From Shigella phage MK-13, in the sequence record MK509462: DNA of 64,000 nt. One strand, given 5' to 3'. The first letter of the stretch is position 1, and the number at the start of each line of letters is the position of its first letter. The translations under genes and the position numbers were made by a program. The notes beneath the pieces are model-generated. The model made no database searches and was not told the DNA's origin. It saw only the letters and a list, made by a program, of their open reading frames with translations. Of the stretch, positions 1-60,791 are shown one piece after another.

Positions 1-131
1 TTGACTTCTTTCTTTGTCAAGCGTTTTGTCTCAGAAGTGATCCACACGAAATCGATATCTTGTACTTTCTTTCCTTCATATTTTTCCAACAAGGGAATGA
101 TGTGTTTTAATACGGCAGTGTTGATGTGCAT
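1..131 (-). CDS. hypothetical protein, 5' portion only (gene runs off the window start)
   Basis: Minus-strand ATG at 131..129 preceded by AAGGA (revcomp of 137..141) with 7-nt spacer; open to the window edge (MHINTAVLKHIIPLLEKYEGKK...). Not in the ORF track because under 60 codons lie inside the window. Confidence 0.35.
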   Translation of the reverse strand, partial: MHINTAVLKHIIPLLEKYEGKKVQDIDFVWITSETKRLTKKEV

Positions 132-4316: not shown

Positions 4317-4327
4317 CTAAATACCCC
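4317..4327 (+). promoter_or_regulatory. late-promoter-like motif CTAAATACCCC with 5'-UTR hairpin (ataccccta / taggggtat, 4321..4355)
   Basis: CTAAATAcccc followed by inverted repeat whose 3' arm supplies a GGGG Shine-Dalgarno 7 nt before ATG 4361. Confidence 0.45.
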
Positions 4328-27112: not shown

Positions 27113-27646
27113 ATGGCTACAGTTAATGAATTTCGCGCGGCCATGTCACGTGGGGGCGGCGTACAACGTCAGCACCGCTGGCGTGTGACCGTCAACTTCC
27201 CAGCATTCGTAGCTGGCGCAGATACCATTCGCGACGTGTCTCTGTTGGCAGTAACAACCAACACTCCTACTGGTCAGCTGGGTGAGATCCTTGTGCCTTG
27301 GGGTGGTCGTGAACTTCCATTCCCTGGTGATCGTCGCTTCGAAGCGCTTCCTATTACGTTCATCAACGTCGTGAACAACTCTGCTTACAACGCCTTTGAA
27401 GTTTGGCAGCAGTACATTAACGGAAGCAACAGCAACCGTGCGGCGGCGAATCCAGATGACTATTTCCGTGACGTGATCATGGAGTTACTGGATGCGAACG
27501 ACAACGTCACTAAGACCTGGACTCTGCAGGGTGGTTGGCCTCAGAACCTCGGCCAGCTGGAACTGGATATGTCTGCAATGGACTCATATACTCAGTTCAC
27601 TGTCGATCTGCGTTACTTCCAGGCCATTTCTGATAAGTCCCTGTAA
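27113..27646 (+). CDS. tail tube protein, gp19-like
   Basis: 177 aa directly after sheath gene; GGAGA RBS; size and position as T4 gp19. Confidence 0.6.
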   Translation: MATVNEFRAAMSRGGGVQRQHRWRVTVNFPAFVAGADTIRDVSLLAVTTNTPTGQLGEILVPWGGRELPFPGDRRFEALPITFINVVNNSAYNAFEVWQQYINGSNSNRAAANPDDYFRDVIMELLDANDNVTKTWTLQGGWPQNLGQLELDMSAMDSYTQFTVDLRYFQAISDKSL

Positions 27647-32953: not shown

Positions 32954-32980
32954 AAACCCCGCTTCGGCGGGGTTTTTCAT
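32954..32980 (+). terminator. rho-independent terminator (aaaccccgc-ttcg-gcggggttt + TTTCATT)
   Basis: 9-bp GC stem, tetraloop, T-run; directly after the major capsid gene. Confidence 0.75.
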
Positions 32981-33025
32981 TATGGGGATTCGCTATATGA
33001 TGTGCCAAACTAATTGGAGGCCATC

Positions 33026-33253
33026 ATGAACGATAAAGAAATAGACATCCGTGCTATAGAGCTACAGGGCGCGAAGAAATACATCATGGGACAGATTGAA
33101 GAAGCGGAAAAGGAGTTGAGGCGTTTGAAATCTGGTATCTTCAGCTCATTCATGAATTCCAAATCGATATTGGCTGTAGAGGTCTACAAAGATACGATGA
33201 GTATTCTGCTAGACGACATCAACAAGAAGATCGCTAGACACATTCCGAGTTAA
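33026..33253 (+). CDS. hypothetical protein
   Basis: ORF 33014..33253; ATG 33026 after GGAGG RBS. Confidence 0.4.
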   Translation: MNDKEIDIRAIELQGAKKYIMGQIEEAEKELRRLKSGIFSSFMNSKSILAVEVYKDTMSILLDDINKKIARHIPS

Positions 33254-33345
33254 TTCCTTTATCGTGTCGATTTAATACCCGCGTTGTTCAATACACCTGC
33301 CTGTTGTATGCTTGTACAGTCAACCATACAACAGGAGTACAAATC

Positions 33346-33678
33346 ATGTCAAGTAACCTCGTATCACCAACACAATCCGTGTCCCAAATTCTGGTCAATG
33401 CTCGTTCTCATAAAGAGCGTTTGTGCAACCTCCTCACCAATATCAGAAACATCCGTATCCAACTCGACGGTGATTACCCAACCGCTCAGAAAGGTGAAGA
33501 TAAAGAAATGGCCGCGCCTGGTCTGGTCGGCTCGGTGATTGACGTCCAGTCTGACCAGGACGATATTATCGACGCTATCTTTACCCATCTGGATGTAATC
33601 CATGAAAAACTAGGCACTTCATGTCATCCAGAATGTGAAGATGGGGTTGGTTCCCAGAATATGACTTTGGCTGGATAA
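33346..33678 (+). CDS. hypothetical protein
   Basis: ORF 33304..33678 (TTG-extended); ATG 33346 after AGGAG RBS. Confidence 0.4.
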   Translation: MSSNLVSPTQSVSQILVNARSHKERLCNLLTNIRNIRIQLDGDYPTAQKGEDKEMAAPGLVGSVIDVQSDQDDIIDAIFTHLDVIHEKLGTSCHPECEDGVGSQNMTLAG

Positions 33679-33737
33679 AGAGTTTCAAAGATTGCATGAT
33701 GGTATTATTACCCTCTCTATTAATCGAGGAAATCACA

Positions 33738-33938
33738 ATGAGCCTGAAAGAAGATTCTGTAAACACCACAGTCGCCAACTCCACCTTCCGTGAGTGGCAC
33801 GACGTATTGTGCAAAGTCGCGAAAAGCCAGGGTGGTTCAGCCGCCGACGCCGACGCCTGGCGTGATGATTACGAAGCGGGCAAGACCCCTCGCCAGTCTT
33901 GGGAAGATGAATGGGGTTGGGAAGAACAAGAAGGATAA
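33738..33938 (+). CDS. hypothetical small acidic protein
   Basis: ORF 33696..33938; ATG 33738 after GAGGAAA; Trp/Glu-rich C-terminus. Confidence 0.35.
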   Translation: MSLKEDSVNTTVANSTFREWHDVLCKVAKSQGGSAADADAWRDDYEAGKTPRQSWEDEWGWEEQEG

Positions 33939-33998
33939 CAGTTTTCAATAACGGGGTGAGAGGTATTATTGCCCCGTCTACTATCCGAGGGCTGTGCC

Positions 33999-34226
33999 AT
34001 GTACCTGAAAAAGATCGTGAAGAAGCCGAAAGGTGATGTTGTCGAAGTATGTCTCATTGAGGCTTACGTTGACTCCTGGAACAACGAGCAGCGTTACTTC
34101 ATGGTCGACACGATGGTGTATGTGCCAGCCTCTCACCTGAACCGTGATTTCATCACAACCGAAAATGTCGTCCGCTGGGAGATTGCAACGCAGTCCGATA
34201 TCGACGAACATCCCATTTTGAACTGA
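33999..34226 (+). CDS. hypothetical protein
   Basis: ORF 33969..34226; internal ATG 33999 preferred (follows hairpin acgggg..ccccgt). Confidence 0.35.
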   Translation: MYLKKIVKKPKGDVVEVCLIEAYVDSWNNEQRYFMVDTMVYVPASHLNRDFITTENVVRWEIATQSDIDEHPILN

Positions 34227-34238
34227 AGGATCTATATC

Positions 34239-34682
34239 ATGTGTGATAAGAATTTCATTTTCATTAGTCCCGCCAAGAAACAGTTCTTCCGTAGCTCCGT
34301 TGGGGACAAGGTGGAAGGTTTCCGTAAACTCAAAGATTATCGCCTGGCATGCGGTGATGTTGATTTTCAGAGCTTCGACAATGATCGCCAGGATTTGAAC
34401 GATGAGGGTTGGACAGAAGTTCCATCCCCACAGTTTATCGACGTCAAGCTGTACTACATGAAGGACAGTGGGAAGTATTATTCAGAAGGTGTGATCAAAA
34501 TCAACCGTGGGGAGGCCGAGGCCGAACCTGCTAAGTCCTGGATGGAGACTATGGATAAAATCCGCTATCTGCTTGACTCAGGCAATTTGCCTGGTTTGGT
34601 TAAAGGTGCCCGGTACGAGGTCTTCGTGACCGGAGAAGGGCATCCAGGTGGGTATCCGGCGGCATTCCACATTAACAACTGA
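34239..34682 (+). CDS. hypothetical protein
   Basis: 147-aa ORF; preceded by conserved CCCATTTTGAACTGAAGGATCTATATC-ATG cassette. Confidence 0.45.
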   Translation: MCDKNFIFISPAKKQFFRSSVGDKVEGFRKLKDYRLACGDVDFQSFDNDRQDLNDEGWTEVPSPQFIDVKLYYMKDSGKYYSEGVIKINRGEAEAEPAKSWMETMDKIRYLLDSGNLPGLVKGARYEVFVTGEGHPGGYPAAFHINN

Positions 34683-34926: not shown

Positions 34927-34944
34927 ATTCAATAAAAAGTTGAA

Positions 34945-34976
34945 TACGGGGTTTACTTCTTCAATAAACCCCGTAT
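34945..34976 (+). terminator. hairpin atacggggttta-cttcttcaa-taaaccccgtat
   Basis: 12-bp stem; contains the recurring ATACCCC/GGGGTAT-type core. Confidence 0.5.
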
Positions 34977-35028
34977 ACTTCATTCCATAAGCAGCACAAC
35001 ACTGACTCTGAAATGAAGGAAATACATC

Positions 35029-35295
35029 ATGGCACGTTCAATCCACGATTTTAAAGACTCTGATATCCTGGCTTTCATCATGGACGGTCGAATGGTAGTT
35101 GTAAACGATGGCGACGACCGCCACAATACCACTCTGGTGATGAACAACGAAGTTGTTTACAGCAACACCCGCGAAGGCATGATCAAGATGCTTCAAAACC
35201 CTCAGCGCTTCGGCAGCAAAATACACAAAGATTACAAAAGCCGCTGCCCGATGCTGGCTCAGCGCCTGATTTGGGCGATGCAAAGCGCCGCATAA
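35029..35295 (+). CDS. hypothetical protein
   Basis: 88-aa ORF, AAGGAAA RBS. Confidence 0.45.
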   Translation: MARSIHDFKDSDILAFIMDGRMVVVNDGDDRHNTTLVMNNEVVYSNTREGMIKMLQNPQRFGSKIHKDYKSRCPMLAQRLIWAMQSAA

Positions 35296-35300
35296 CAAAC

Positions 35301-35318
35301 AAGCCCCTCCGGGGGCTT
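35301..35318 (+). terminator. hairpin aagcccc-tcc-gggggctt
   Basis: GC stem right after stop of 35029..35295, followed by CCCATTTGAA cassette. Confidence 0.45.
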
Positions 35319-35350
35319 CTGTCTCCCATTTGAATTGAAGGAACTATATC

Positions 35351-38639: not shown

Positions 38640-39092
38640 ATGAAAGAACAACTACAGACAATGGCAACCGAGGACATCATGAACGAACTGGAGCCGCTGA
38701 TTACAGTGGACCCAGAAGACATGAACCTTGACCAGATCTCACTGAAAATCGGGCGCTCTTGGATGGCCGTACAACGGCATTATCTGCGTGAGGGGCGTTA
38801 TCTTGAATTCCTCAACGGGCGCTTCCGCCAGATCGATCTCTATCTGCGCCGCTACTACGCAGGGGAGTTACCCCCGAACATCTACGCAGAGCGCCCCCTG
38901 AAGGTTCGCCCCCTGAAGTCTGACCTGGACACATGGGTCAAAGCCGACGATGACTATGTAGAACTGTCTGTTCTGTTACAAGAACAAAAAGCAAAAGTCA
39001 AGTTCATCGAGACTTGTTTGGATCGCCTGAACAAGCTGGGATACGAAGTGAAGAATGCCATCGATTGGCGAAAATATATGGATGGTTCCTGA
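38640..39092 (+). CDS. uvsY: UvsY-like recombination mediator (tentative)
   Basis: 150 aa; C-terminal LQEQKAKVKFIETCLDRLNKLGYEVKNAIDWRKYMDG loosely parallels T4 UvsY C-terminus; sits next to uvsW as in T4. Confidence 0.45.
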   Translation: MKEQLQTMATEDIMNELEPLITVDPEDMNLDQISLKIGRSWMAVQRHYLREGRYLEFLNGRFRQIDLYLRRYYAGELPPNIYAERPLKVRPLKSDLDTWVKADDDYVELSVLLQEQKAKVKFIETCLDRLNKLGYEVKNAIDWRKYMDGS

Positions 39093-44279: not shown

Positions 44280-44744
44280 ATGGCGCGCAATACGCTAGAC
44301 ATATTGAACATTTCAGCCGTCAACGATGAGGCCAGCATCGTTGATTGTATGGTTGAAGTTCAATTGAACCAAGATCGGCCAGGAATATTCCTGGGGATCA
44401 AGGAAACACTGAGCCGAATTGGGGTAAACACGCGCCAAGAGCCGAATACTCTGTATCAGACTTGTCATATTCTTCACAAGTATGGCAAGTATTATATCGT
44501 CCACTTCAAGCATCTGTTTATGCTGGACGGGCATTACAACGGGTTTAACCGCGAAGATGTCCTGAGGATGAACCGCATCATCAAGCTGCTCGAGCAGTGG
44601 AATATGGTGAAGGTCATTCATCCCGAGCAGGTCACCGAAGCCGCCGATATGTCACGCATTAAAGTGGTTAAACACGATCAGGTTCCTGAATGGAAGCTGG
44701 TTCCAAAATACATTATCCGGCCTACAAAGGCCAAAAGCGAATAA
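44280..44744 (+). CDS. regA: RegA translational repressor
   Basis: LYQTCHILHKYGKYYIVHFKHLFMLDG and EWKLVPKYIIRP match T4 RegA LYQSCHILQKKGLYYIVHFKEMLRMDG and EWKLVPKYTIG. Confidence 0.8.
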   Translation: MARNTLDILNISAVNDEASIVDCMVEVQLNQDRPGIFLGIKETLSRIGVNTRQEPNTLYQTCHILHKYGKYYIVHFKHLFMLDGHYNGFNREDVLRMNRIIKLLEQWNMVKVIHPEQVTEAADMSRIKVVKHDQVPEWKLVPKYIIRPTKAKSE

Positions 44745-45630: not shown

Positions 45631-45699
45631 GATATACAGTTATTCACTAAACAACAGAGGCTATAATGGCCTCTGTTTTTCGTATTCTAAGAGGATACC

Positions 45700-47035: not shown

Positions 47036-49054
47036 ATGTCAGAATTTAAGCCCTTCGCAGTAGCCGTAAACAATAATGTGCTGGCCATGTCAGCAACTGG
47101 TCTGTTCATGACCAACATCGATAAAGATGCTCTGTGGGATCTGTACCTGAACTCTTTCCCTGCTGGCACCAACCCGCTCTACCGTGAGCGCACCGAGCAC
47201 GACTGCACCTGCTGTAAACAATTCATCCGTAACATCGGCGGTGTGGTGACCATCGACGCCGACCTGAACGTGATCTCTATCTGGGATAACATTCAGCTGG
47301 GTAACGAATACGACGTTGTCGCTGCGGCGCTGTCTGCGTATGTCAAGCAACACGCAATCGTCGACGTGTACTTCAACGATACCAAGAAAGTCGGTGTTGA
47401 GTCGAATCACGAAATGAAAGACGGTAATGTCCGCACCTACAACCACTTCCACACCGACCTGCTGCCCAGCTATGTTCTGCGGGCTGATGCCATCGCTTCT
47501 AAGAAGGGTGAAATCCGCCAGGCGATTGAAGTGTTTGAGCGCGGCCTGCGTGAACTGTCTCTGGAATCGGCCGAAATCGTTCTGGAACTGATTGATCAGA
47601 ATTCTCTGTATCGTGGTGAAGAGCACAAAGCTGCTGTGCAGGCGTTCGTGACGAGCAAGACCATGTACGAACAAACTGCAGAAGAGAAACGCGCTCTGTG
47701 GGCTTGGCGTACTGGCTACCGTGCAAACGGACACACCCCTCACGGCATCCGCAATACCGTGATTGGCTCTCTGTTGGTAGACCTCAATGAAGGTCGGGAT
47801 CTGGAAACCGCCGTGAAGTCCTTTGAAGCCAAAGTCGCTCCGACGAACTACAAGCGCCCAACCGCGCTGGTCACGAAGTCCATGATTGAAAACGCGCAGA
47901 AAGAAGTCGAAGCGCTGGGTCTGACTGATTCACTGGGTCGCCGTTATGCCGTGTATGACGATCTGACCATCAACAACGTTTTGTTTGCCGACCTGGCAGC
48001 ACAGAAGAAGATGGACCCGTTTGCTCAGCTGGCGTCTGAAGTGAAGACTCCGACCAAGTCCCTGGACAAGGTTGAAGAGATCACCATCGACGACTTCCTG
48101 ACCAACGTGTTGCCAAAGGCGCATTCCCTGGAAGTGCTGGTTGAGAACTCTCACACTGGCAACCTGATGTCCCTGATCGCCCCGGCTACGGTGGGTGCTC
48201 CTAACCTGTTCAAGTGGAACAACGGCTTCAGCTGGTCATACAATGGCGAAGTGGCCGACTCCATCAAAGAGCGCGTGAAGACAGCAGGCGGCAACGTCGA
48301 CAGCTTCCTCCGTGTGTCGCTGGCGTGGCATAACAACGACGACCTGGATCTGAGCCTGAACGATCCTCTTCACAACCACGTGTATTTCAACAACCGTCGT
48401 TCGGCAACTGGTGCAACCCTGGACATCGACATGAACGGTATGGACGGTATTGACCCGAACCGCCGTCCGGTGGAGAACATCTTCTTCAGCGATGAACGCA
48501 AGCTGCGTGACGGGAACTATGAGTTCTATGTCACCAACTACAGCAAGCGCGAAACCTGCGATGTGGGCTTCGAAATCGAAGTTGAATACAAAGGCCAGAC
48601 CAAGCGCTTCTCGCATCCTGGTCTGGGTAACAAAGACCGCACGTTGGCTGTTGTGGTTCAGGTACGCGCTGGTCAGGTGGTCGACATCAGTTCTACCCTG
48701 AAAGACGACGCTCGCTCTCAGGAAATCTGGGGCATCAAGACCTCCGTCTTCCAGAAGGTACAGCTGGTTCTGAACTCACCAAACCATTGGGACGGCGAGC
48801 AGACGGGCAACAAGCACGTGTTCTTCATCCTGGAAGGTTGTGCTAACCCTGTCGGCACCCGTGGCTTCTACAACGAATATCTGAAGCCGGAACTTGATAA
48901 ACACCGCAAGGTTTTTGAAATGTTAGGTGGTAAGATTAAAGTACAGCCAAGCACTGAGCAGCTGTCCGGTCTGGGCTTCTCTACCACCCAACGCAACCAC
49001 GTGTTCGTGAAGGTGAGCGGCTCGTTCAACCGCACTGTGAAAGTTGTGTTCTAA
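47036..49054 (+). CDS. hypothetical protein (672 aa)
   Basis: Preceded by hairpin + ACATTTGAACTGAAACAGGAAGACTACATC-ATG cassette; no motif recognised. Confidence 0.5.
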   Translation: MSEFKPFAVAVNNNVLAMSATGLFMTNIDKDALWDLYLNSFPAGTNPLYRERTEHDCTCCKQFIRNIGGVVTIDADLNVISIWDNIQLGNEYDVVAAALSAYVKQHAIVDVYFNDTKKVGVESNHEMKDGNVRTYNHFHTDLLPSYVLRADAIASKKGEIRQAIEVFERGLRELSLESAEIVLELIDQNSLYRGEEHKAAVQAFVTSKTMYEQTAEEKRALWAWRTGYRANGHTPHGIRNTVIGSLLVDLNEGRDLETAVKSFEAKVAPTNYKRPTALVTKSMIENAQKEVEALGLTDSLGRRYAVYDDLTINNVLFADLAAQKKMDPFAQLASEVKTPTKSLDKVEEITIDDFLTNVLPKAHSLEVLVENSHTGNLMSLIAPATVGAPNLFKWNNGFSWSYNGEVADSIKERVKTAGGNVDSFLRVSLAWHNNDDLDLSLNDPLHNHVYFNNRRSATGATLDIDMNGMDGIDPNRRPVENIFFSDERKLRDGNYEFYVTNYSKRETCDVGFEIEVEYKGQTKRFSHPGLGNKDRTLAVVVQVRAGQVVDISSTLKDDARSQEIWGIKTSVFQKVQLVLNSPNHWDGEQTGNKHVFFILEGCANPVGTRGFYNEYLKPELDKHRKVFEMLGGKIKVQPSTEQLSGLGFSTTQRNHVFVKVSGSFNRTVKVVF

Positions 49055-50700: not shown

Positions 50701-50810
50701 CTGAATTATCAAACTCCTTCAATATCAATGACGCCCAGTATATTTGCTGGGTGTTTCAATTTGTGCATCACAGTATAATACGGCTGTACAATACACCATG
50801 AGGCTACATT

Positions 50811-53900: not shown

Positions 53901-56094
53901 ATCATTAGAATTTAAGAATGCGGTTGAGACTGCTGCCCCGTCCAACCATGTAATCGTTGTGGACATCTCTTATTCGATGTACCGTGCGCTCCCTGAAGTC
54001 CGTAAGCATCTGAAGGAGAACCTGCCTTCTCTGGTGAAACCGGAAGACACTGTGAGTGTTCTGTATTTCTCCTCCAAAGGCGACTTTGGCACAGTGTTTG
54101 CTGGTCGTCAAATCAGCGCGGCTTCCGACCTGAGTGAGATGAACAAACTGATCGACCGCTTCCTACAACCGTCCGGATGCACCGGATTCGTGGAACCTCT
54201 GGGTCTGGCTGTAGACACCGCTCGTAGTCTGAAGAAGCCTGGTTATGTCAACAACCTGGCATTCATGACCGACGGCTATGACAACTGCTGGCGCTCCAAT
54301 GAAATCCTGGCCGTCGCCGAAACCCTGCCATTTGCTTTCGATAACATTACATTTATCGAATACGGCTGGTACTGTAACCGCGAACTGCTGGCTCTGATGT
54401 CTGAGCGCTCCGGTGCGACCCACGTGTTTGCCGAAGGTCAGGTTGAGTATCAGGCCGAGCTGGAAACCGTGCTGAAGTCTTCAGTGCCGAAGGTGGTTGT
54501 TGATGTGCCTCTGCTATACACCCACGCCATCTATGTTGAAAACGGCGTGGCAACTGTTCTGGCAGTACAGGCAGACTCAGAGCATCCCGTTGGCCACGTG
54601 AGCATCCCTGAGAGCGTCACGAAGCTGTGGGTCGTCAATCCTAACATGATCGACCAGCTTGATGCGCTGGCGGACATCCAGGCGGCATACGTGCTGGCGT
54701 TCTATGGCGTACACATCATGGACGCCGATTTGGTATGGGCTGCCCTGAAGAAAACGGGTGACGTTCGCTTCATCAAACAGTACAGCAACTGCTTCACCAA
54801 GCAGGACTACTCCAACATCAAGATCGATCTGGTTCAGGCTATTGTTGACGACCAGCTGCGCGGCGTTGACGGTATTGACTATGACCTGGTTCCAGCTGAA
54901 GATGCGACGACCGTCGTTGACGTGCTGACGTATCTGGCTGAAGCTGGCGTGTGTGTTGCTACCAAACATCCTATGTTCTCCTACAAGAGCATCGGTCGCG
55001 GTACGGCTCAGAAACTGGACGATACCGAAGACAAGCTGGCAGAACAGATCGCGAACGCCGAGTCCAAAGAAGAGCGCAAAGCCCTGGCTCTCAAGCTGGC
55101 CGAGCACGAAGAGTGGAACCCGACGTTCGAACCTAACAACGATCTGGGTGTTGTGCCAATCAGCGATTTGGTCTATAACTCCGAACGCCCTAATATCAGT
55201 GTACGCACTGTCCAGCACGGCACTGTGGCGATTCCGGAGTTCGTGCAGAAGAAGTTCGGTCTGCCTGAAGAACTGGATACTTTCCAATGGCGCAACTACA
55301 CCATCGTCAAAGACGGCATCATCAACGTGAAGACTCTGCCGTTCAGGGCTGATGTTGAAGTTGTAACCAATCTGTGCCAGATGGGCGTCCATGTGTTCGG
55401 TGGTCCGGAAGTGTTTGTCCTGAACCTGGAAAGCGTACCGCTGGTCAACCGCGCCATGGTCAAGAACATCAGTGCTGCTCAGTTCTTTGCGGATAATGTC
55501 CGTCTGGAAGCCCTGAAAGGCAAGCAGAAGGTGCTGAAGTTCTTCCGTGATGAACTGGTTGGCAAAGGTAACGCCAAAGGCCTGGCAGTACAGTACGGTG
55601 CTGAGGCGGCCGAGTTCCTGTCCTTCTACGGCATCCGTGATTACGGCTTCTCACCGAAGACCGAACTGAAGGACTCCACGGATGTCTACATGAGCCGTGA
55701 GCTGAACGTTAAGATCGCTGGAGCGTCTTCTCTGCCTAGCATCGCGGCAGTACAGAAGAAGATTGCCGAGAACAAGAAACTCAATGCGGGTGACTTGTTC
55801 ATCGCCAATGCTCTGAAGGAATACGAAGCATTCGTGAAGTCTCCTGCGATCACTGCCGTGCCTGAAGCCGTACAGAAACAGCTGATCGAAAACTGGATCG
55901 ACGCTGCTGCCAAGGCGGCCATCACTGAAGTCCGCGCCCTGAACAAGACGCTGTCTAAAGTGGTGTATGGTATCGTTGCTGGTCACGGCTGGTTCACCGA
56001 CCTCGACCTGGAAGAGTCCACCATGGAAGTTGAAGTGGATGGTGTGAAGTACAAGGTCACTGCCGAACTGGCAGAGAAAGAGATCAAAATCTAA
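53893..56094 (+). CDS. von Willebrand factor A (VWA) domain protein
   Basis: ORF 53809..56094; ATG 53893 (ATGATTGA overlap). N-terminal VIVVDISYSM is a MIDAS DxSxS motif in a beta-strand context; about 730 aa. Confidence 0.55.
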   Translation: MIESLEFKNAVETAAPSNHVIVVDISYSMYRALPEVRKHLKENLPSLVKPEDTVSVLYFSSKGDFGTVFAGRQISAASDLSEMNKLIDRFLQPSGCTGFVEPLGLAVDTARSLKKPGYVNNLAFMTDGYDNCWRSNEILAVAETLPFAFDNITFIEYGWYCNRELLALMSERSGATHVFAEGQVEYQAELETVLKSSVPKVVVDVPLLYTHAIYVENGVATVLAVQADSEHPVGHVSIPESVTKLWVVNPNMIDQLDALADIQAAYVLAFYGVHIMDADLVWAALKKTGDVRFIKQYSNCFTKQDYSNIKIDLVQAIVDDQLRGVDGIDYDLVPAEDATTVVDVLTYLAEAGVCVATKHPMFSYKSIGRGTAQKLDDTEDKLAEQIANAESKEERKALALKLAEHEEWNPTFEPNNDLGVVPISDLVYNSERPNISVRTVQHGTVAIPEFVQKKFGLPEELDTFQWRNYTIVKDGIINVKTLPFRADVEVVTNLCQMGVHVFGGPEVFVLNLESVPLVNRAMVKNISAAQFFADNVRLEALKGKQKVLKFFRDELVGKGNAKGLAVQYGAEAAEFLSFYGIRDYGFSPKTELKDSTDVYMSRELNVKIAGASSLPSIAAVQKKIAENKKLNAGDLFIANALKEYEAFVKSPAITAVPEAVQKQLIENWIDAAAKAAITEVRALNKTLSKVVYGIVAGHGWFTDLDLEESTMEVEVDGVKYKVTAELAEKEIKI

Positions 56095-56100
56095 TCCAAC

Positions 56101-56124
56101 GGGCGGGGCAACCCGCCTTTCTTT
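56101..56124 (+). terminator. hairpin gggcggg-gcaa-cccgcc + TTTCTTTG
   Basis: After VWA gene stop. Confidence 0.5.
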
Positions 56125-56136
56125 GGGAGAAGTAGC

Positions 56137-56463
56137 ATGAGCAGTAAACCAACATATGTTGAAGTCATGCGTCATCTGGCTCAGTACGCCACTGACAATC
56201 TGAACTTAGATGCAGACGAGGTGAAATACCCAAACGTCAAGAAAATGATTGACGGTGAAGTTGCCACAGACGATGCGTTGGATAAGTTTGCAGGCCTCCG
56301 CACCAAGAAGGATCTCGGCGGTGATGAACTGGACGCTATCGAAATTGTAATGGACCTCGAAGAAGAGTTTCAGGTCGAAATCGACGACGGTTGGCTGGGT
56401 AGTAAAGGCGATGACCCGACCATGGGTGAACTCGCTGAACTCGTGGTTGCCCTGCGCAAATAA
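56137..56463 (+). CDS. acyl carrier protein homologue with Ser-to-Glu substitution at the phosphopantetheine site
   Basis: DLGGDELDAIEIVMDLEEEFQVEIDDG aligns with E. coli ACP [27 protein letters not shown]; the DSL serine is GAA (Glu) at 56326..56328. Confidence 0.6.
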   Translation: MSSKPTYVEVMRHLAQYATDNLNLDADEVKYPNVKKMIDGEVATDDALDKFAGLRTKKDLGGDELDAIEIVMDLEEEFQVEIDDGWLGSKGDDPTMGELAELVVALRK

Positions 56464-56469
56464 CAGAAG

Positions 56470-56500
56470 TCCCCAACGTTTGTTGGGGATTTTTACTTTT
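56470..56500 (+). terminator. rho-independent terminator (ccccaac-gttt-gttgggg + ATTTTTACTTTT)
   Basis: 7-bp stem, T-rich tail after ACP-like gene. Confidence 0.65.
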
Positions 56501-56586
56501 AGGGGTTTACTTCCTCTAAGGAATATCCTATTATTCAATAACTGGCGAACGATGGGGTTCACCAGGTTGAAAGGTAAGATTATATC

Positions 56587-56826
56587 ATGAAGAACAAAAT
56601 GGTCGAAACTTCAGTAGAGATTGATCGCAATTGGGGCTTGCTCCGCGCTAAAGGGTTCCGCCGTGTGTATGCGACCAAAGAGGTATATGCCCAGCGCCGT
56701 GACGTTATCATCAGCAAGAAGGGCAAAGAGTGGGTTGCTGAAGAAGTCGATGTTGAGACAGGCGTCGTCGGCAAGGTGAAAGCCAAGGCCGCGATCCTCT
56801 TCGCTCTTCTGAAGCACATCAGCTAA
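56587..56826 (+). CDS. hypothetical protein
   Basis: 79 aa; AAGGTAAG RBS. Confidence 0.4.
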   Translation: MKNKMVETSVEIDRNWGLLRAKGFRRVYATKEVYAQRRDVIISKKGKEWVAEEVDVETGVVGKVKAKAAILFALLKHIS

Positions 56827-56840
56827 TTCTATAAACTCCG

Positions 56841-56859
56841 GCGGGGTATGATTACCCCG
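56841..56859 (+). repeat. palindromic hairpin gcggggtatgattaccccg (copy 1; copy 2 at 57399..57420)
   Basis: Identical 19-nt hairpin recurs 560 nt downstream; each is followed by (C)TATTTGAA...ACTATATC-ATG. Confidence 0.6.
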
Positions 56860-56885
56860 TCTATTTGAAATGCAGGAACTATATC

Positions 56886-57392
56886 ATGACCGATCAACAA
56901 ATTCAAGATTTATTTTACCTCGCCCATGATAAGTCCCACATCATGCGCCCCGGTACTGTTTCCCCTGCCGTCCGTGATCTGGTGCAAGAATTACGCGAAC
57001 CACAGACGACCACACTTTATCGCGGGCTGCCTAAGGAGGACGTTGCGCGTTTAGAGATGTTGTTTGAACGAGGCGACATGTTCCAGACATGGGATTCTTG
57101 TCTTAGCTTCAGTGAACTGAAGCATGTGGCCAAACAATTTTCTAAATCGTACGGAACCAAAGCTGTTGCCCGCATTTGTTACAAACATCGAAACGGACTC
57201 CCGGAGGGGCTTAATGTCTATGGTTCTCTAGAAAAATTTGTGAACAAAGGCGATGAATCAGAAATGGATATGCTGGACTTGGCGTCCATGGAGAAAGAAT
57301 GGATATTCTGCCAGCCTCGCGTCATACCAGTTTCAAGAAAAATGGCAACAGACGGGACGATGGTTTTTACCGTATCACTTGTTACCCTATAA
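56886..57392 (+). CDS. hypothetical protein; candidate ADP-ribosyltransferase (speculative R / S-x-S / E-x-E pattern)
   Basis: ORF 56865..57392, ATG 56886. LYRG (Arg), SCLSFS, and EKEW arranged in the order seen in R-S-E ADP-ribosyltransferases such as T4 Alt/Mod; weak evidence. Confidence 0.4.
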   Translation: MTDQQIQDLFYLAHDKSHIMRPGTVSPAVRDLVQELREPQTTTLYRGLPKEDVARLEMLFERGDMFQTWDSCLSFSELKHVAKQFSKSYGTKAVARICYKHRNGLPEGLNVYGSLEKFVNKGDESEMDMLDLASMEKEWIFCQPRVIPVSRKMATDGTMVFTVSLVTL

Positions 57393-57398
57393 ACCCAC

Positions 57399-57420
57399 GG
57401 CGGGGTATGATTACCCCGCC
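57399..57420 (+). repeat. palindromic hairpin ggcggggtatgattaccccgcc (copy 2)
   Basis: See 56841..56859. Confidence 0.6.
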
Positions 57421-57444
57421 CATTTGAAACCAAGAGACTATATC

Positions 57445-57819
57445 ATGAAAAAGTTAATCCTCGCTGTTGCCCTGCTGGGTGCTTCCTTTGCTGCTGTTTC
57501 CGCCCCTCCTGTCATCACCGGAGTGTCTACCAACGGCGTTTATGCTTTCAAGGCGTATGGCCAAGACCTCGTTCTGTATAAGAACGGGAAGATGATTGAG
57601 CGCTGTGTAGCGGATGGTGTAAACCGTGGGATCGACAATCAGGGCAGTCCGTTCATCCTGGACTTCTATGCCTGCTCCAACGGGACGAAGACCTTTGGTG
57701 TCAAGACCTTCGGCAACGTCGCCGACGGCGGCTGGGGCTTCATGATCGAAACCCGCAACCGCCGCCCGGTCACGACCATTGAAGAAGAGTTCTTGATCTC
57801 TGTCGGGGGCACGTTATGA
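57445..57819 (+). CDS. secreted protein (cleavable signal peptide)
   Basis: ORF 57253..57819 truncated to ATG 57445 (after hairpin/cassette); MKKLILAVALLGASFAAVSA signal peptide. Confidence 0.45.
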   Translation: MKKLILAVALLGASFAAVSAPPVITGVSTNGVYAFKAYGQDLVLYKNGKMIERCVADGVNRGIDNQGSPFILDFYACSNGTKTFGVKTFGNVADGGWGFMIETRNRRPVTTIEEEFLISVGGTL

Positions 57820-58103
57820 CACCATCAGAGAGAAGTTCTATCAAGGAGATGATCAGAGACAAGGCGTGTGTTGGCCATACTCAGTCAGAGAACATCTTGC
57901 GCCTGATGGAGGTCAAGAATCATATCGACAATGGCCGATTCCAATCAGCGTTGTATGGTATGCTGGAGTTTATATCGCGGTCATCTGATCTTGGCACGGT
58001 CCGATATCTTGACGATCTGACCAAGCTGCTGAACACGGGCGGGGAAACTTTCGACACCGCTCGTATCCTGATTGACGGTGGACCTGAAGAAGACGAGGTG
58101 TGA
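57816..58103 (+). CDS. hypothetical protein
   Basis: 95 aa; ATGA overlap with upstream gene. Confidence 0.4.
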   Translation: MTPSERSSIKEMIRDKACVGHTQSENILRLMEVKNHIDNGRFQSALYGMLEFISRSSDLGTVRYLDDLTKLLNTGGETFDTARILIDGGPEEDEV

Positions 58104-58213
58104 TGGTGGACATTGAATTTTGGGGTTGGCTTATTGGATGTTCATTGGGCGTCTTGCTCGTTTTGTTGTGTGAATATCTCGGAGCCGTACTGTGTAAGAC
58201 ATTTCACGCCTAA
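58103..58213 (+). CDS. small hydrophobic peptide (36 aa), not in ORF track
   Basis: ATG 58103 overlapping upstream stop (GTGATGG); WGWLIGCSLGVLLVLLCEYLGAVLC single TM segment. Confidence 0.25.
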   Translation: MVDIEFWGWLIGCSLGVLLVLLCEYLGAVLCKTFHA

Positions 58214-58246
58214 CTAAGGGATAATCCATATCCCGAGGTGAATCTC

Positions 58247-58696
58247 ATGTTCATGTCTTCCTTCATAGACTGGTTGAACATTATCAACGGCCTGAGGATT
58301 CCTGTCGGAAACCTCGGGCTTTCTCGTTCTTCTATGCCACAGATCGACGATGACAAGCAGCAGGCGTTCCATGACTACCTGGAGGAACTTGGCATCACCA
58401 TCGACGCTGGCCAGGTTCCTATCAAATCCCTCCGTCTCACCCAGAACGAAATCAACAAGATGAAGGTCTGGAAGATCATGAAGAACATCAGAAACAAGAA
58501 GCCCATGGGTCGGGTTTGGGTGTCTTCTGATAACTATGTGGTCGACGGCTCGCACCGCTATGTCGCCGCCCTGAACATGGATGACCGTCAGCGCATCAAG
58601 GTCTACAAAGTGGACATGCCAGCGATGGAGTTCGTCAAGGTCGCCAAGCAGTTCAAGGGTGTGAAGTTCAGAACCGTGTCTGACGCTCGCTTCTGA
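58247..58696 (+). CDS. ParB-like nuclease domain protein (tentative)
   Basis: ORF 58238..58696 (GTG), ATG 58247 after GAGGTG; VVDGSHRYVAAL resembles the ParB/sulfiredoxin DGxHR core. Confidence 0.4.
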   Translation: MFMSSFIDWLNIINGLRIPVGNLGLSRSSMPQIDDDKQQAFHDYLEELGITIDAGQVPIKSLRLTQNEINKMKVWKIMKNIRNKKPMGRVWVSSDNYVVDGSHRYVAALNMDDRQRIKVYKVDMPAMEFVKVAKQFKGVKFRTVSDARF

Positions 58697-58775
58697 ATAC
58701 GATAGTTTATTGAAACCCTTTACTCAACATGGTGATCCGCCTATCATTTCATCCAATGAAATAAGGAGAATCACC

Positions 58776-59776: not shown

Positions 59777-59827
59777 GTTTCGGGTTAAAATTTAGCCCTA
59801 CATTGTGAACTGAAGGAATACACTGTG

Positions 59828-60733
59828 ATGCTCCTGACCAAATCAATCGCTGCGGCGATTATCGAAAAGAATAAGGCTTTTGCCCCCAACACAGCCAAAG
59901 TTATGTTGGTACACGAAGACGCTCGCGTGATCTTCGCCGAGAAGTTCGAGATGGGTGCGAAGTTCTGGTATGCCGACAACTTGCGTGAGAGCAAACTTCA
60001 GGGCATCATCCACAAACTGACTCTGGTCGCCAAGCGTAATGACCAGGGTGACTGGGTCGGTGTTTCTGACTTCAGTACGAAGATCACCCCAAAGGCTCCA
60101 CTTTCTCGTCAAGAGCGCATTCTGGAAGCCCAGGAAAAGCTGCGTGCGGCTCGGAGTACCCCAAAGGCGAAGCCAGATGCAAGCCCGGTCATAACTCCTG
60201 CCACCAAACTGCCTCCGGTGAGTGACAAGTCCGTCGAGCAATATGCGGAGAAGCGCAACGGCAACGGGATGTCTGTATCCAAGATGTCTAAGACTGTTGA
60301 GCCATTTAAGACGAATCCGGCAGTTGAAGTTGTGTCCGCAGTAACTGAAGTTGTCAGTAAAATTCGCGAAGACATGATCGCCCTGGGTGCATTGGACGAT
60401 CCCTCTGAATTTATCTCCCTGCGTGAACTCGAGCCACCCACCCGCCGCCGTATTGCCAATGAGATGTTTGTGTCGTTCAGGTCGGATGGCAAGATCATCC
60501 TGTGTAAAGCCTTGCGTGACATCATTCCGTGGACCACGTTGAACATGATGGTGACACGCGACTTCAAGCGCTTCGGTATTATGCAAGGCAAGGACTACAA
60601 CGTCAACCAGAGCGGGACTTATGTCAATCGCGCCATGTGCTCTAAGCTGTCATTCCCTGAAGATACCGGAACGATCCGCGTCGTTCTGAACTGGGATGAC
60701 AAGCTGAACATGTATGTTGGCGATTTCCAATAA
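59828..60733 (+). CDS. hypothetical protein
   Basis: ORF 59825..60733; preceded by CATTGTGAACTGAAGGAATACACTGTG-ATG cassette variant. Confidence 0.45.
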   Translation: MLLTKSIAAAIIEKNKAFAPNTAKVMLVHEDARVIFAEKFEMGAKFWYADNLRESKLQGIIHKLTLVAKRNDQGDWVGVSDFSTKITPKAPLSRQERILEAQEKLRAARSTPKAKPDASPVITPATKLPPVSDKSVEQYAEKRNGNGMSVSKMSKTVEPFKTNPAVEVVSAVTEVVSKIREDMIALGALDDPSEFISLRELEPPTRRRIANEMFVSFRSDGKIILCKALRDIIPWTTLNMMVTRDFKRFGIMQGKDYNVNQSGTYVNRAMCSKLSFPEDTGTIRVVLNWDDKLNMYVGDFQ

Positions 60734-60791
60734 ATCAATAACCTCGGGCGGCTATCATAAAGTCGCTCCCTTTCATTTGAGAGACTATATC

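Follow-up and report, generated by a model that had tools for sequence, protein, structure and literature searches.

Unrelated ORFs in the early regions of Shigella phage MK-13 (sequence record MK509462) are preceded by the same composite of a GC-rich stem-loop and a short leader that ends at the start codon, which raises the question of what the shared unit does and how it came to stand before different genes. We examined this question in a window of 64,000 nt (the whole stretch of DNA that was analysed), and in particular at positions 56840-57819, where two copies of the composite (here called the cassette) lie on either side of one gene. The window represents an Agtrevirus-like phage of the Ackermannviridae (ViI-like), with ~96% identity to ChubbyThor, SKML-39 and Ag3. 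Cassettes termed promoter-early stem-loops (PeSLs) are known in the T4-like phages RB49/phi1, T4/PST and KVP40/nt-1 (Arbiol et al. 2010, PMC2839356; Comeau et al. 2014, PMC4122927).

A repeated hairpin and leader

The recurrence of a hairpin followed by a leader is real. At least nine plus-strand genes carry a leader of the form (C)ATTTGAA(c)TGAAGGAAC-TATATC-ATG, and all copies are co-oriented and fixed in register with the downstream ATG. The initial annotation had credited at least seven genes with both elements (starts 34239, 35351, 47036, 56886, 57445, 59828 and 60792); a stable GC-rich hairpin is present at five of the seven, but 34239 lacks one and the copy at 59828 is degenerate. Members absent from that list are 35029, 56587 and, more weakly, 35692. 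The copies outside the focal slot, all on the plus strand, are as follows.

34212-34238, plus strand: leader-only copy before gene 34239, CCCATTTTGAACTGAAGGATCTATATC; 20.9 bits
34944-35028, plus strand: longer, PeSL-like copy before gene 35029, with a 49-nt leader ending in GAAGGAAATACATC
35301-35350, plus strand: copy before gene 35351, hairpin AAGCCCCtccgGGGGCTT plus leader ending in CCCATTTGAATTGAAGGAACTATATC; 23 bits
46985-47035, plus strand: copy before the 672-aa gene 47036, hairpin GCGCCCTGgcaaaCGGGGCGC (−18 kcal/mol) plus leader ACATTTGAACTGAAACAGGAAGACTACATC
56506-56586, plus strand: copy before gene 56587, promoter-like TTTACT-17-TATTAT (56506-56534), hairpin at 56542-56565 and leader GTTGAAAGGTAAGATTATATC; 14.9 bits
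59782-59827, plus strand: degenerate copy before gene 59828, AU-rich weak hairpin plus CATTGTGAACTGAAGGAATACACTGTG
60746-60791, plus strand: copy before gene 60792, hairpin GGGCGGCTatcataaAGTCGCTC with TATCAT at its apex, plus CCTTTCATTTGAGAGACTATATC; 22.1 bits

The element directly before the ATG, ACTATATC, had been described as nearly invariant; it is exact at 35343, 56878, 57437 and 60784 but not at all seven starts. These four exact matches in the window (0.97 expected) are all on the plus strand, directly 5' of an ORF ATG. Further upstream, CATTTGAA is exact before three of the seven starts (35327, 47007 and 57421), the rest carrying the variants CATTTTGAA, TATTTGAA, CATTGTGAA and CATTTGAG. 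Two hairpins were correctly seen to share a 19-mer, GCGGGGTATGATTACCCCG (two occurrences against 0.01 expected), but the second coordinate was off by one: the copies lie at 56841-56859 and 57400-57418, and the true identical stretch is 21 nt long (cggcggggtatgattaccccg).

Enrichment of the motif was borne out by a PWM of positions −14 to +3 from six sites, which returned 10 plus-strand hits scoring 14 bits or more and none on the minus strand, where 0.78 would be expected over the two strands together, with the hits tied to ORF starts. Leave-one-out scores of the sites, from a seven-site PWM, were 14-21 bits. Among 69 distinct leaders drawn from 10 genomes, most have the TTGAA box, which was not a selection criterion, at −21 to −17. 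Part of the leader motif is a general habit of the phage: across the ChubbyThor genome ATC is the most frequent triplet 5' of ATG (27 of 214 called genes). That genome holds ~14 cassette copies and the window 9-10.

Individual copies depart from the consensus to different degrees. At 34239 there is neither a hairpin nor a stable fold (z = +0.5), and the leader overlaps the upstream ORF 33969-34226, the TGA within the leader (34224-34226) being the stop codon of that ORF. The 59828 leader scores 1.3 bits in the leave-one-out analysis, with the GTGAACTGAAGGAA half of the motif present and ACTATATC absent, and its predicted fold (−10 kcal/mol, z = −0.9) places the Shine-Dalgarno sequence within a stem-loop. 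The hairpin at 34944-34976 (−25.7 kcal/mol, z = −5.6) embeds TTTACT-N16-TATACT (34952-34979); the unit recurs in the ChubbyThor genome at 94315 and, in part, at 81011, and it fronts three different ORFs across phages. A Pfam search of ten cassette-fronted proteins returned RegA as the only match.

Conservation and earlier descriptions

The leader was also found in each Ackermannviridae genus sampled, with the motif present in Limestonevirus, Kuttervirus, Taipeivirus and Nezavisimistyvirus, and in Erwinia phage phiEa2809 (52% protein identity). The 47036 leader is kept before the orthologous gene in Limestonevirus, Kuttervirus, Taipeivirus and phiEa2809. A BLAST search with the consensus leader found 530 places in 274 phage records, nearly all of them Ackermannviridae. 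A pattern scan of IMG/VR with TTTGAA-N8-12-CTATATCATG was uninformative and returned mostly lone chance matches in unrelated contigs. The cassette matched no curated covariance model in Rfam 15 (the sole match was a spurious mir-205, E = 0.33) and no other known repeat family.

The 2012 'Viunalikevirus' paper reportedly mentions 'conserved regulatory sequences'. The Ag3 and LIMEstone genome papers report promoters of the generic σ70 and T4 types as well as 31-40 terminators, and do not describe the cassette. In the searchable literature on Ackermannviridae, Viunalikevirus, Kuttervirus and CBA120 (promoters, transcriptomes and intergenic repeats) we found neither a description of the cassette nor transcript-end data; an earlier description is possible.

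The focal slot

The slot at 56840-57819 consists of two cassettes, the gene between them and the gene that follows.

56840-56861, plus strand: left hairpin, GGCGGGGTA-tgat-TACCCCGTC, with TATGAT at the apex; −16.8 kcal/mol
56862-56885, plus strand: left leader, TATTTGAAATGCAGGAACTATATC, with TTTGAA box, AGGA Shine-Dalgarno sequence and CTATATC spacer; 21.8 bits
56886-57392, plus strand: cargo gene, 168 aa, Alt-like ADP-ribosyltransferase (phrog_832 'RNA polymerase ADP-ribosylase', E = 7.8e-15)
57399-57420, plus strand: right hairpin, 21-nt core the same as in the left copy; −19.6 kcal/mol, z = −4.2
57421-57444, plus strand: right leader, CATTTGAAACCAAGAGACTATATC; 22.1 bits
57445-57819, plus strand: downstream gene, 124 aa, phrog_5474 (function-unknown family), with an N-terminus (MKKLILAVALLG...) that looks like a signal peptide

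The ADP-ribosyltransferase gene occurs patchily, in 76 phage records. It is missing from SKML-39, Ag3, pertopsoe and Maynard, and the right leader is the sole copy remaining in phages without it. In P46FS4, EspM4VN and phiD3 the slot contains denV, preceded by a leader identical to the left focal leader, and this same leader precedes a third ORF in ECML-4. Between the window and Kuttervirus CBA120, the block 56587-57444 is 94-95.5% identical at the nucleotide level (95.5% for the cargo gene) and its flanks 66-80%; the high-identity alignment stops at 57448, that is, at the right cassette. Crossovers at this slot fall variously within the hairpin, within the TTTGAA box, around the Shine-Dalgarno sequence or at the ATG. 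The single-copy 'empty' sites are chimeric, and their crossover point differs, being the hairpin for SKML-39 and ATTTGAA for locus L141.

Rearrangement junctions at other copies

A similar arrangement of two leader copies surrounds another cargo gene.

35029-35295, plus strand: cargo gene, 88 aa, phrog_16902, between two leader copies; deleted in ChubbyThor, SKML-39 and Ag3

The deletion gap corresponds to window 35031-35331, with a 23-nt overlapping junction that places the crossover within TGAAGGAA. The hairpin and leader of the 35351 copy have a different ORF behind them in P46FS4 and ECML-4, and an additional ORF interrupts the sequence precisely at the 56587 ATG in P46FS4 and EspM4VN, a position at which Ag3 has a canonical hairpin plus TGTTTGAAAGCAGGACTATATC. 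Non-homologous ORFs stand behind the same leader in at least four leader families.

Taking BLAST HSP ends as approximate breakpoints in five relatives that are not phylogenetically independent, we found 7 of 43 breakpoint clusters in cassette intervals that make up 1.5% of the region (p about 4e-6), and a breakpoint at 5 of 9 cassette starts, compared with 6 of the 36 remaining starts (p = 0.028). Gene boundaries are where indel junctions would be expected in any case, and the contrast between cassette and non-cassette starts is modest. The alignments indicate that the repeats mark junctions at which relatives have gained, lost or replaced genes. The initial annotation proposed a mobile or duplicated promoter-terminator-start unit, of which the duplicated terminator-start part is supported by junctions inside the unit in relatives; autonomous mobility showed no sign. 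The unit appears to be a repeated intergenic socket, the moving parts being the genes behind it.

Hairpins and structure around the start codon

Stable hairpins (−15 to −20 kcal/mol) are predicted 5' of 35351, 47036, 56886, 57445 and 60792, and 7 of the 10 copies in all have one of −15 to −25 kcal/mol. Across 15 distinct orthologous and paralogous copies of the focal hairpin, 100% of the cells are paired and three pairs show compensatory change; the homology search with the 124-aa downstream protein that fed this alignment yielded five loci only and is not a broad sample. The hairpins are followed by UCUAUUUG, CCCAUUUG or ACAUUUGA, in which U-tracts are weak, and a simple terminator scan of the focal hairpins flagged only 60746-60768.

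In the predicted cassette folds the stretch from the Shine-Dalgarno sequence to the AUG is unpaired. Mean fold energy from −20 to +20 is −2.0 kcal/mol for cassette genes versus −4.7 kcal/mol for other genes (p = 0.0024), and the unpaired probability from −15 to +6 in an 80-nt context did not differ significantly (0.54 versus 0.48, p = 0.10). Inspection by eye of the leader against the 3' end of 16S rRNA revealed no extended complementarity beyond AAGGA. Efficient translation alone does not account for the exact CTAYAYC spacer and TTGAA box in phiEa2809.

Does the cassette contain a promoter?

The distance from hairpin to ATG is 24-32 nt in most copies, so a σ70 promoter cannot fit between them. 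We also rejected a reading in which TATATC serves as the −10 and TTTGAA as its −35 or as a MotA-like box: the two lie 10 nt apart, and the transcription start would lie inside the ORF. TATATC cannot be the −10 of these ORFs because the ATG would fall outside the transcript, and the ATG after TATATC opens a PHROG-aligned protein and a signal-peptide-like sequence. Canonical TTTACT-N16/17-TATNNT sites were found at 34952, 56506 and 58719 only, upstream of some copies; they fit the T4/PST PeSL promoter consensus TTTACW-N17-TAYWAT.

A composite terminator-promoter might instead place the −10 at the hairpin apex (TATGAT, TATCAT, TATAAT or TATTAT), as in a true PeSL whose stem-loop overlaps the −10; transcription would then begin immediately 3' of the stem, and a short early or middle mRNA would have the (C/T)C(C/T)ATTTGAA... 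leader at its 5' end. In RB49/phi1 the PeSL stem-loop mostly lies between −35 and −10 or over the −10 (PMC2839356). A TATNAT hexamer occupies the apex in 6-7 of the 25 intergenic hairpins of the window, all in early regions (before 34002, 45700, 50811, 56886, 57445 and 60792), and at 33942-33969 a TTTTCA box lies 16 nt 5' of an apex TATTAT. The hexamer remains TAnnAT or TAnnnT in orthologues while the stems covary, and in orthologues of 60792 it stays TATCAT, TATTAT or TATAAT. However, invariance of the six TATGAT columns over 15 sequences is not statistically compelling (CBA120 has TATCTT), and an AT-rich apex is in part simply a palindromic extension of the stem. The −35 positions 5' of the focal hairpins are poor (TAATTC), a TGn extension is absent, the hairpins of 35351 and 47036 have no −10-like apex, and σ70-like sites in the region as a whole are not above shuffled sequence. 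We regard an apex promoter as possible but doubtful; it is compatible with the socket reading developed below.

Is the leader a translational operator?

The suggestion that the start context could be recognised by a translational regulator drew on RegA, which is indeed encoded in the window.

44280-44744, plus strand: regA homologue, translational repressor, not part of a cassette (PF01818, E = 1.9e-34; phrog_242)

If the leader TTGAA ... CTAYAYC-AUG bound RegA or another RNA-binding regulator of the phage, a set of early accessory genes might be coordinately repressed or activated. The regA gene is present in all genera sampled, and RegA operators resemble the cassette in lying at or just 5' of the AUG of several early mRNAs and in being A/U-rich and unstructured, as is the unpaired cassette spacer; T4 RegA sites overlap the AUG or lie just 5' of it, and the T4 SELEX site, aaAAUUGUUAUGUAA, is A+U-rich with a 5' poly(A) tract (PMC3014915). 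The leader is moreover conserved beyond the Shine-Dalgarno sequence and AUG, even in phiEa2809, which general translation efficiency does not explain. In contrast, the RegA sites of T4 and RB69 carry the 5' poly(A) tract without a conserved sequence, whereas the cassette sequence is fixed, contains C residues and lacks poly(A), and the cassette is absent before the orthologues of the T4 RegA targets (45, 44, 62, regA, rIIA, rIIB and dexA). No candidate regulator other than RegA was identified. RegA binding is thus weakly disfavoured, and we think an operator of this kind quite unlikely.

Because phiEa2809 is too divergent for homogenisation by recombination yet has kept CTAYAYC and the TTGAA box, there is a hint of sequence-specific recognition. 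It is conceivable, if unlikely, that the 25-nt leader (TTGAA-N3-5-AAGGA-A-CUAYAYC-AUG), kept across genera too divergent to homogenise, is a sequence-specific cis-operator for a phage factor and joins swappable accessory genes into a translational regulon that spans the family. Candidate factors are RegA with a new specificity or another protein or RNA, and such an operator could be combined with −10 promoters at the hairpin apex, in which case an inserted gene would gain timing, insulation and translational control together. The family-wide invariance of the leader poses a defined and testable question of translational control.

A proposed socket for gene exchange and its alternatives

We consider it probable, though far from certain, that the cassette is an insulated expression socket that doubles as recombination homology, a PeSL-like or moron-like system. 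The GC-rich stem-loop would act as an attenuator or terminator, shielding the gene from transcription that enters from upstream, and might also stabilise the RNA. The unstructured leader of 24-32 nt, with its TTGAA box ~21 nt 5' of the start, AAGGA/AGAGA Shine-Dalgarno sequence and A/U-rich CTAYAYC spacer before the ATG, would give small early-region accessory genes efficient, context-independent translation initiation. Crossovers by the phage's T4-type recombination system would fall inside copies because these are near-identical, in tandem and common to co-infecting relatives, so that the ORF between or behind them is deleted, inserted or replaced. For the ViI-like phages (Ackermannviridae), in wide use as candidates for biocontrol and therapy, this would provide a sequence-level account of how accessory genes are gained and lost. 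Among the exchanged genes are the RNA-polymerase ADP-ribosyltransferase and the DNA-repair gene denV, and such exchange may bear on host-range and fitness differences among near-identical isolates.

Alternatively, the repeats might be convergent strong ribosome-binding sites only, their overlap with junctions reflecting the usual gene-boundary bias of viable rearrangements. ATC-ATG (27 of 214 genes), purine-rich Shine-Dalgarno sequences and A/U spacers are common in the phage, and six non-cassette starts also have junctions. Convergence cannot, however, produce an identical 21-nt hairpin core and identical 26-nt leaders before unrelated ORFs, and both the chimeric single-copy sites and the 8-nt exact junction within the leader point to crossover inside the repeat. 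Junctions are also enriched at cassette starts relative to other starts, and it is at a cassette that the mosaic 95% block stops. This reading is disfavoured and, in our judgement, very unlikely. Gene-sized units between hairpin-forming direct repeats also recall integron cassettes, and relatives contain many homing endonucleases (ChubbyThor has insertions at window 39092 and 58667), so we also weighed an autonomously mobile element, whether a MITE-like repeat, an attC cassette of the integron type or the target of a homing endonuclease. But the cargo consists of the ADP-ribosyltransferase, denV and small ORFs rather than endonucleases, the uniform orientation and fixed register to the start codon extend to every copy, and the variable crossover points indicate homologous recombination rather than site-specific cleavage. 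No integrase or transposase adjoins the slots, and no integrase, which would be expected next to the imperfect inverted repeat of an attC site, is annotated in the region of any relative. Such an element is extremely improbable.

Comparison with known systems

PeSLs are a close parallel to the socket reading in several respects. Like them, the cassette is a repeated intergenic composite of stop codon, AT-rich stretch, GGGG...CCCC-type stem-loop, Shine-Dalgarno sequence and ATG; both are concentrated among small accessory ORFs and flank sites at which close relatives differ by insertion, deletion or replacement, and crossovers map within the motif (in the loop, between −10 and Shine-Dalgarno, or between Shine-Dalgarno and ATG). 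The phage also has T4-type recombination genes and −10-like hexamers in or at the stem-loop. Features of PeSLs found here are the repeated composite motif reaching to the ATG, the stable stem-loop and the association of the motif with indels and replacements whose crossover lies inside it. The two differ in that what defines a PeSL is a strong, demonstrably active σ70 promoter (−35/−10), whereas most copies here have no convincing −35; lacZ fusions demonstrated both promoter and terminator activity of PeSLs. They also differ in that conservation here is highest, and extends across the family, in the leader for translation, with its TTGAA box and CTAYAYC spacer, whereas PeSLs have a generic Shine-Dalgarno sequence. 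Ackermannviridae are also another phage family with unrelated sequence. Mini-circles formed by recombination between neighbouring PeSLs are detectable in RB49. The parallel would extend PeSL-type modular shuffling past the T4-like phages proper.

The morons of lambdoid phages described by Hendrix and colleagues are extra genes between conserved genes, with their own signals, a terminator hairpin and a patchy presence. The ADP-ribosyltransferase and denV genes behave alike, being present or absent among relatives. Unlike morons, which are individually distinct and have their own promoter, they share repeated flanks and appear as alternative genes exchanged by homology.

A strong phage translation leader for comparison is that of T7 gene 10, AAGGAGATATACAT-ATG. 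Both leaders have an AAGGA-type Shine-Dalgarno sequence, an 8-nt spacer of alternating A/U, an A/U-rich element upstream and little structure in the start region, but the T7 leader serves a single gene, whereas the cassette leader is multi-copy, conserved across genera and coincident with recombination junctions. Natural insulated insertion sites with a portable, putatively strong leader may also be of use in engineering these phages.

A conserved leader in front of early-region genes

BLAST of 55500-58500 and 40000-64000 against GenBank phages places the window in Agtrevirus (Ackermannviridae, ViI-like), at ~96% identity to Shigella phages ChubbyThor and Ag3 and Salmonella phages SKML-39 and P46FS4, with weaker matches to Kuttervirus, Limestonevirus and Taipeivirus. 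Nearly every gene in 30-64 kb lies on the + strand. The repeated cassette of GC-rich hairpin, short Shine-Dalgarno leader and ATG is real and non-random. The ACTATATC element occurs four times (0.97 expected), in all four cases on the + strand and directly before the ATG of an ORF. The initial annotation had listed seven cassette starts (34239, 35351, 47036, 56886, 57445, 59828 and 60792), and the text upstream of all seven reads as described, but 34239 has no hairpin and that of 59828 is weak and AU-rich; the hairpins upstream of the other five are stable. With a position weight matrix (PWM) spanning -14..+3, leave-one-out scores were 14-21 bits at six sites and only 1.3 bits at 59828. At a threshold of at least 14 bits the PWM found 10 matches on the + strand and none on the - strand, compared with 0.78 expected on both strands together. 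It also adds 35029, 56587 and, more weakly, 35692 to the set; one match, at 33086, is inside a gene. One component of the motif is common in this phage generally: throughout the ChubbyThor genome, ATC is found before ATG more often than any other triplet (27 of 214 called genes).

We ran the same PWM on eight more genomes or regions (SKML-39, P46FS4, Ag3, EspM4VN, phiD3, ECML-4, 0507-KN2-1 and phiEa2809), and in each of them TTGAA(a/c)n-GAAGGAAC-TAYAYC-ATG leaders stand upstream of several unrelated genes. Erwinia phage phiEa2809 has the leader although its orthologue of the 672-aa protein encoded at 47036-49054 is only 52% identical. YTGAAA recurs at -21..-16, positions outside the PWM, across 69 distinct leaders. 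The leader sequence is strictly conserved, a signature of the whole family: its 33-nt consensus matches 530 places in 274 phage records, essentially all Ackermannviridae.

TGA occurs in every reading frame of the consensus leader (TTTGAA, cTGAAGG, ATGA), which would give correct termination to any ORF recombined into the socket. At compact junctions the leader TGA supplies the stop of the upstream ORF, as at 34224-34226 (site 34216-34226) and after denV in P46FS4 (locus L011, ~27255-27273). In the degenerate leader of 59828 (59799-59830), folding predictions pair ACAUUGUG with CACUGUGA, so that the Shine-Dalgarno sequence lies within a stem-loop, and this leader may be a structured variant.

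Hairpins, start regions and promoter-like sites

Features of the window
56886..57392: gene between identical hairpins, phrog_832 'RNA polymerase ADP-ribosylase'
33951-33977: GC-clamped intergenic hairpin, apex hexamer
45653-45677: same
50730-50755: same
56840-56861: same
57399-57420: same
60746-60768: same
34952-34979: canonical σ70-like TTTACT-N16/17-TATNNT
56506-56534: same
58719-58747: same

The 19-mer hairpin core reported as identical is present at 56841 and 57400 (two copies, 0.01 expected), and the identity between these two focal hairpins really spans 21 nt. Complete pairing of the focal hairpin is retained in 15 distinct sequences, with changes on both sides at three pairs; no Rfam family was matched. 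Because the U-tracts 3' of the hairpins are weak, we describe the hairpins as attenuators or insulators and treat terminator activity as putative. The stretch from Shine-Dalgarno to AUG is unpaired in predicted folds, and local folding near the start is weaker for cassette genes (-2.0 versus -4.7 kcal/mol, p = 0.0024); a broader measure of accessibility gave no significant difference for cassette genes.

Of 25 intergenic hairpins, 6-7 have a TATNAT hexamer at the apex, and every one of these lies in an early region. The apex hexamers of the GC-clamped hairpins (TATTAT, TATAAT, TATATT, TATGAT twice and TATCAT) are -10-like. Late-region hairpins have plain tetraloops (TTCG, TTCA, GAAA) instead. 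Promoter activity of the focal copies is a hypothesis, since their -35 regions are poor. Of the 'promoter-terminator-start unit' first proposed, the duplicated terminator-start part is supported and the promoter part is putative. TATATC was rejected as the -10 box of cassette ORFs, as TTTGAA-N10-TATATC is incompatible with σ70 spacing.

The promoter-like site at 34952 sits within a 12-bp hairpin. Downstream of the TTTACT-N16/17-TAT(A/T/C)(A/C)T sites, which also occur in the ChubbyThor genome at 94315 and 81011 (L007), the putative start of the transcript is conserved as TTCAT(T)CCA. The ~85-bp unit of hairpin, promoter and leader at 34944-35028 is also repeated at other places in the genome, where its 5' part is the same and the ORFs behind it differ.

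Gene replacement at cassette copies

The gene at 56886..57392 and its two flanking cassette copies are found in the window, ChubbyThor and vB_CECAV_050, and this ADP-ribosyltransferase gene is confined to 76 phage records. In SKML-39, Ag3, pertopsoe and Maynard the cassette is single-copy and the gene absent; in P46FS4, EspM4VN and phiD3 denV occupies the slot behind the identical leader tctatttgaaatgcaggaactatatcATGACC; and in ECML-4 and CBA120 the slot holds still another ORF. The single-copy sites are chimeras with differing switch points, from left-type to right-type inside the hairpin in SKML-39 and inside ATTTGAA in an IMG/VR locus (L141), which indicates that they arose by independent crossovers.

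Relative to Kuttervirus CBA120, 56587-57444 is 94-95.5% identical whereas flanking genes are 66-80% identical, and the high-identity alignment stops at 57448, the right-hand cassette. The wider mosaic block 56305-57448 (CBA120 locus L143, 2420-3563) is 91-95% identical, against just 66-80% for neighbouring genes, which points to recent exchange between genera. The repeat reaches several codons into cargo ORFs (56886-56897; L143 3560-3571; L011 26806-26811): the ADP-ribosyltransferase gene opens with ATGACCGATCAA, denV with ATGACC, and the unrelated next ORF of CBA120 and ECML-4 with ATGACAGATCA (MTDQ...).

Other junctions also fall at leaders. Gene 35029..35295 is absent from ChubbyThor, SKML-39 and Ag3, with the junction within TGAAGGAA common to both flanking leaders; P46FS4 and EspM4VN have an additional ORF whose insertion point is the 56587 ATG itself; in P46FS4 another ORF replaces the one that follows the 35351 cassette; and non-homologous ORFs follow four leader families in different phages. 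Against five Agtrevirus relatives, cassette intervals (1.5% of the region) hold 7 of 43 breakpoint clusters (binomial p ~4e-6), and breakpoints occur at 5 of 9 cassette starts versus 6 of 36 others (Fisher p = 0.028). In these alignments, cassette repeats are places where related genomes differ.

Two ChubbyThor insertions, at window positions 39092 and 58667-58691 (L008; 710 bp and 859 bp), encode genes of endonuclease type (gp176 and the NUMOD3 protein gp150); they are indels of homing endonucleases and have nothing to do with the cassette. In place of block 32976-33943, ChubbyThor has an HNH gene and EspM4VN a DNA methyltransferase; one end of the block is immediately past the major-capsid terminator, the other at the TTTTCA box belonging to the promoter-like site that follows.

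Candidate regulators and related systems

RegA, the translational repressor suggested to act on these starts and still a candidate, is indeed encoded in the window (44280..44744). In T4, RegA binds unstructured, A+U-rich sites that overlap the AUG or are immediately 5' of it, with poly(A) and no conserved sequence; the cassette resembles them in position and lack of structure but not in sequence character, and it is absent from orthologues of T4 RegA targets in this phage. Some sequence-specific factor may recognise the leader, the best argument being that the exact spacer is retained in a very divergent genus.

Among known systems, the promoter-early stem-loop (PeSL) cassette of T4-like phages (PMC2839356, PMC4122927) is the closest. 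Both are repeated stem-loops with Shine-Dalgarno and ATG among accessory ORFs, and both show crossovers inside the motif and modular exchange. In RB49/phi1, PeSL stem-loops are located between the -35 and -10 elements or overlap the latter (PMC2839356), in agreement with the site inside the hairpin at 34952, and the TTTACT-N16/17-TATNNT sites agree with the T4/PST PeSL promoter consensus TTTACW-N17-TAYWAT. Unlike PeSLs, most cassette copies have no clear σ70 promoter, the core that they conserve is a translation leader, and they occur in a different family of phages. The unit is also similar to the moron concept. The Ag3 and LIMEstone genome papers do not describe the cassette, and a literature search found no transcript-mapping study of Ackermannviridae. 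The cassette is best classed as a PeSL-like shuffling socket of Ackermannviridae phages.

A late-promoter-like repeat and the 672-aa protein

Copies of CTAAATAC, all on the + strand (seven, 0.93 expected)
4317, 9474, 20813, 30257, 30613, 36654, 39835

Six copies have a gene 7-30 nt downstream, in most cases a late or structural one, and the element is probably the late promoter of Ackermannviridae phages. Only 7 nt separate the copy at 4317 from the start codon of gene 4331, and there is no Shine-Dalgarno sequence; this points to a late mRNA with almost no leader.

The 672-aa protein behind the 47036 cassette has no Pfam match and belongs to phrog_1735, to which PHROG assigns no function; in ChubbyThor it is labelled 'putative DNA-directed RNA polymerase'. 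Its homologues (40-50% identity) are found in very diverse phages, namely phiCbK-like Caulobacter phages and those of Alteromonas, Stenotrophomonas, Bacillus (BCP12) and Microcystis (LMM01).
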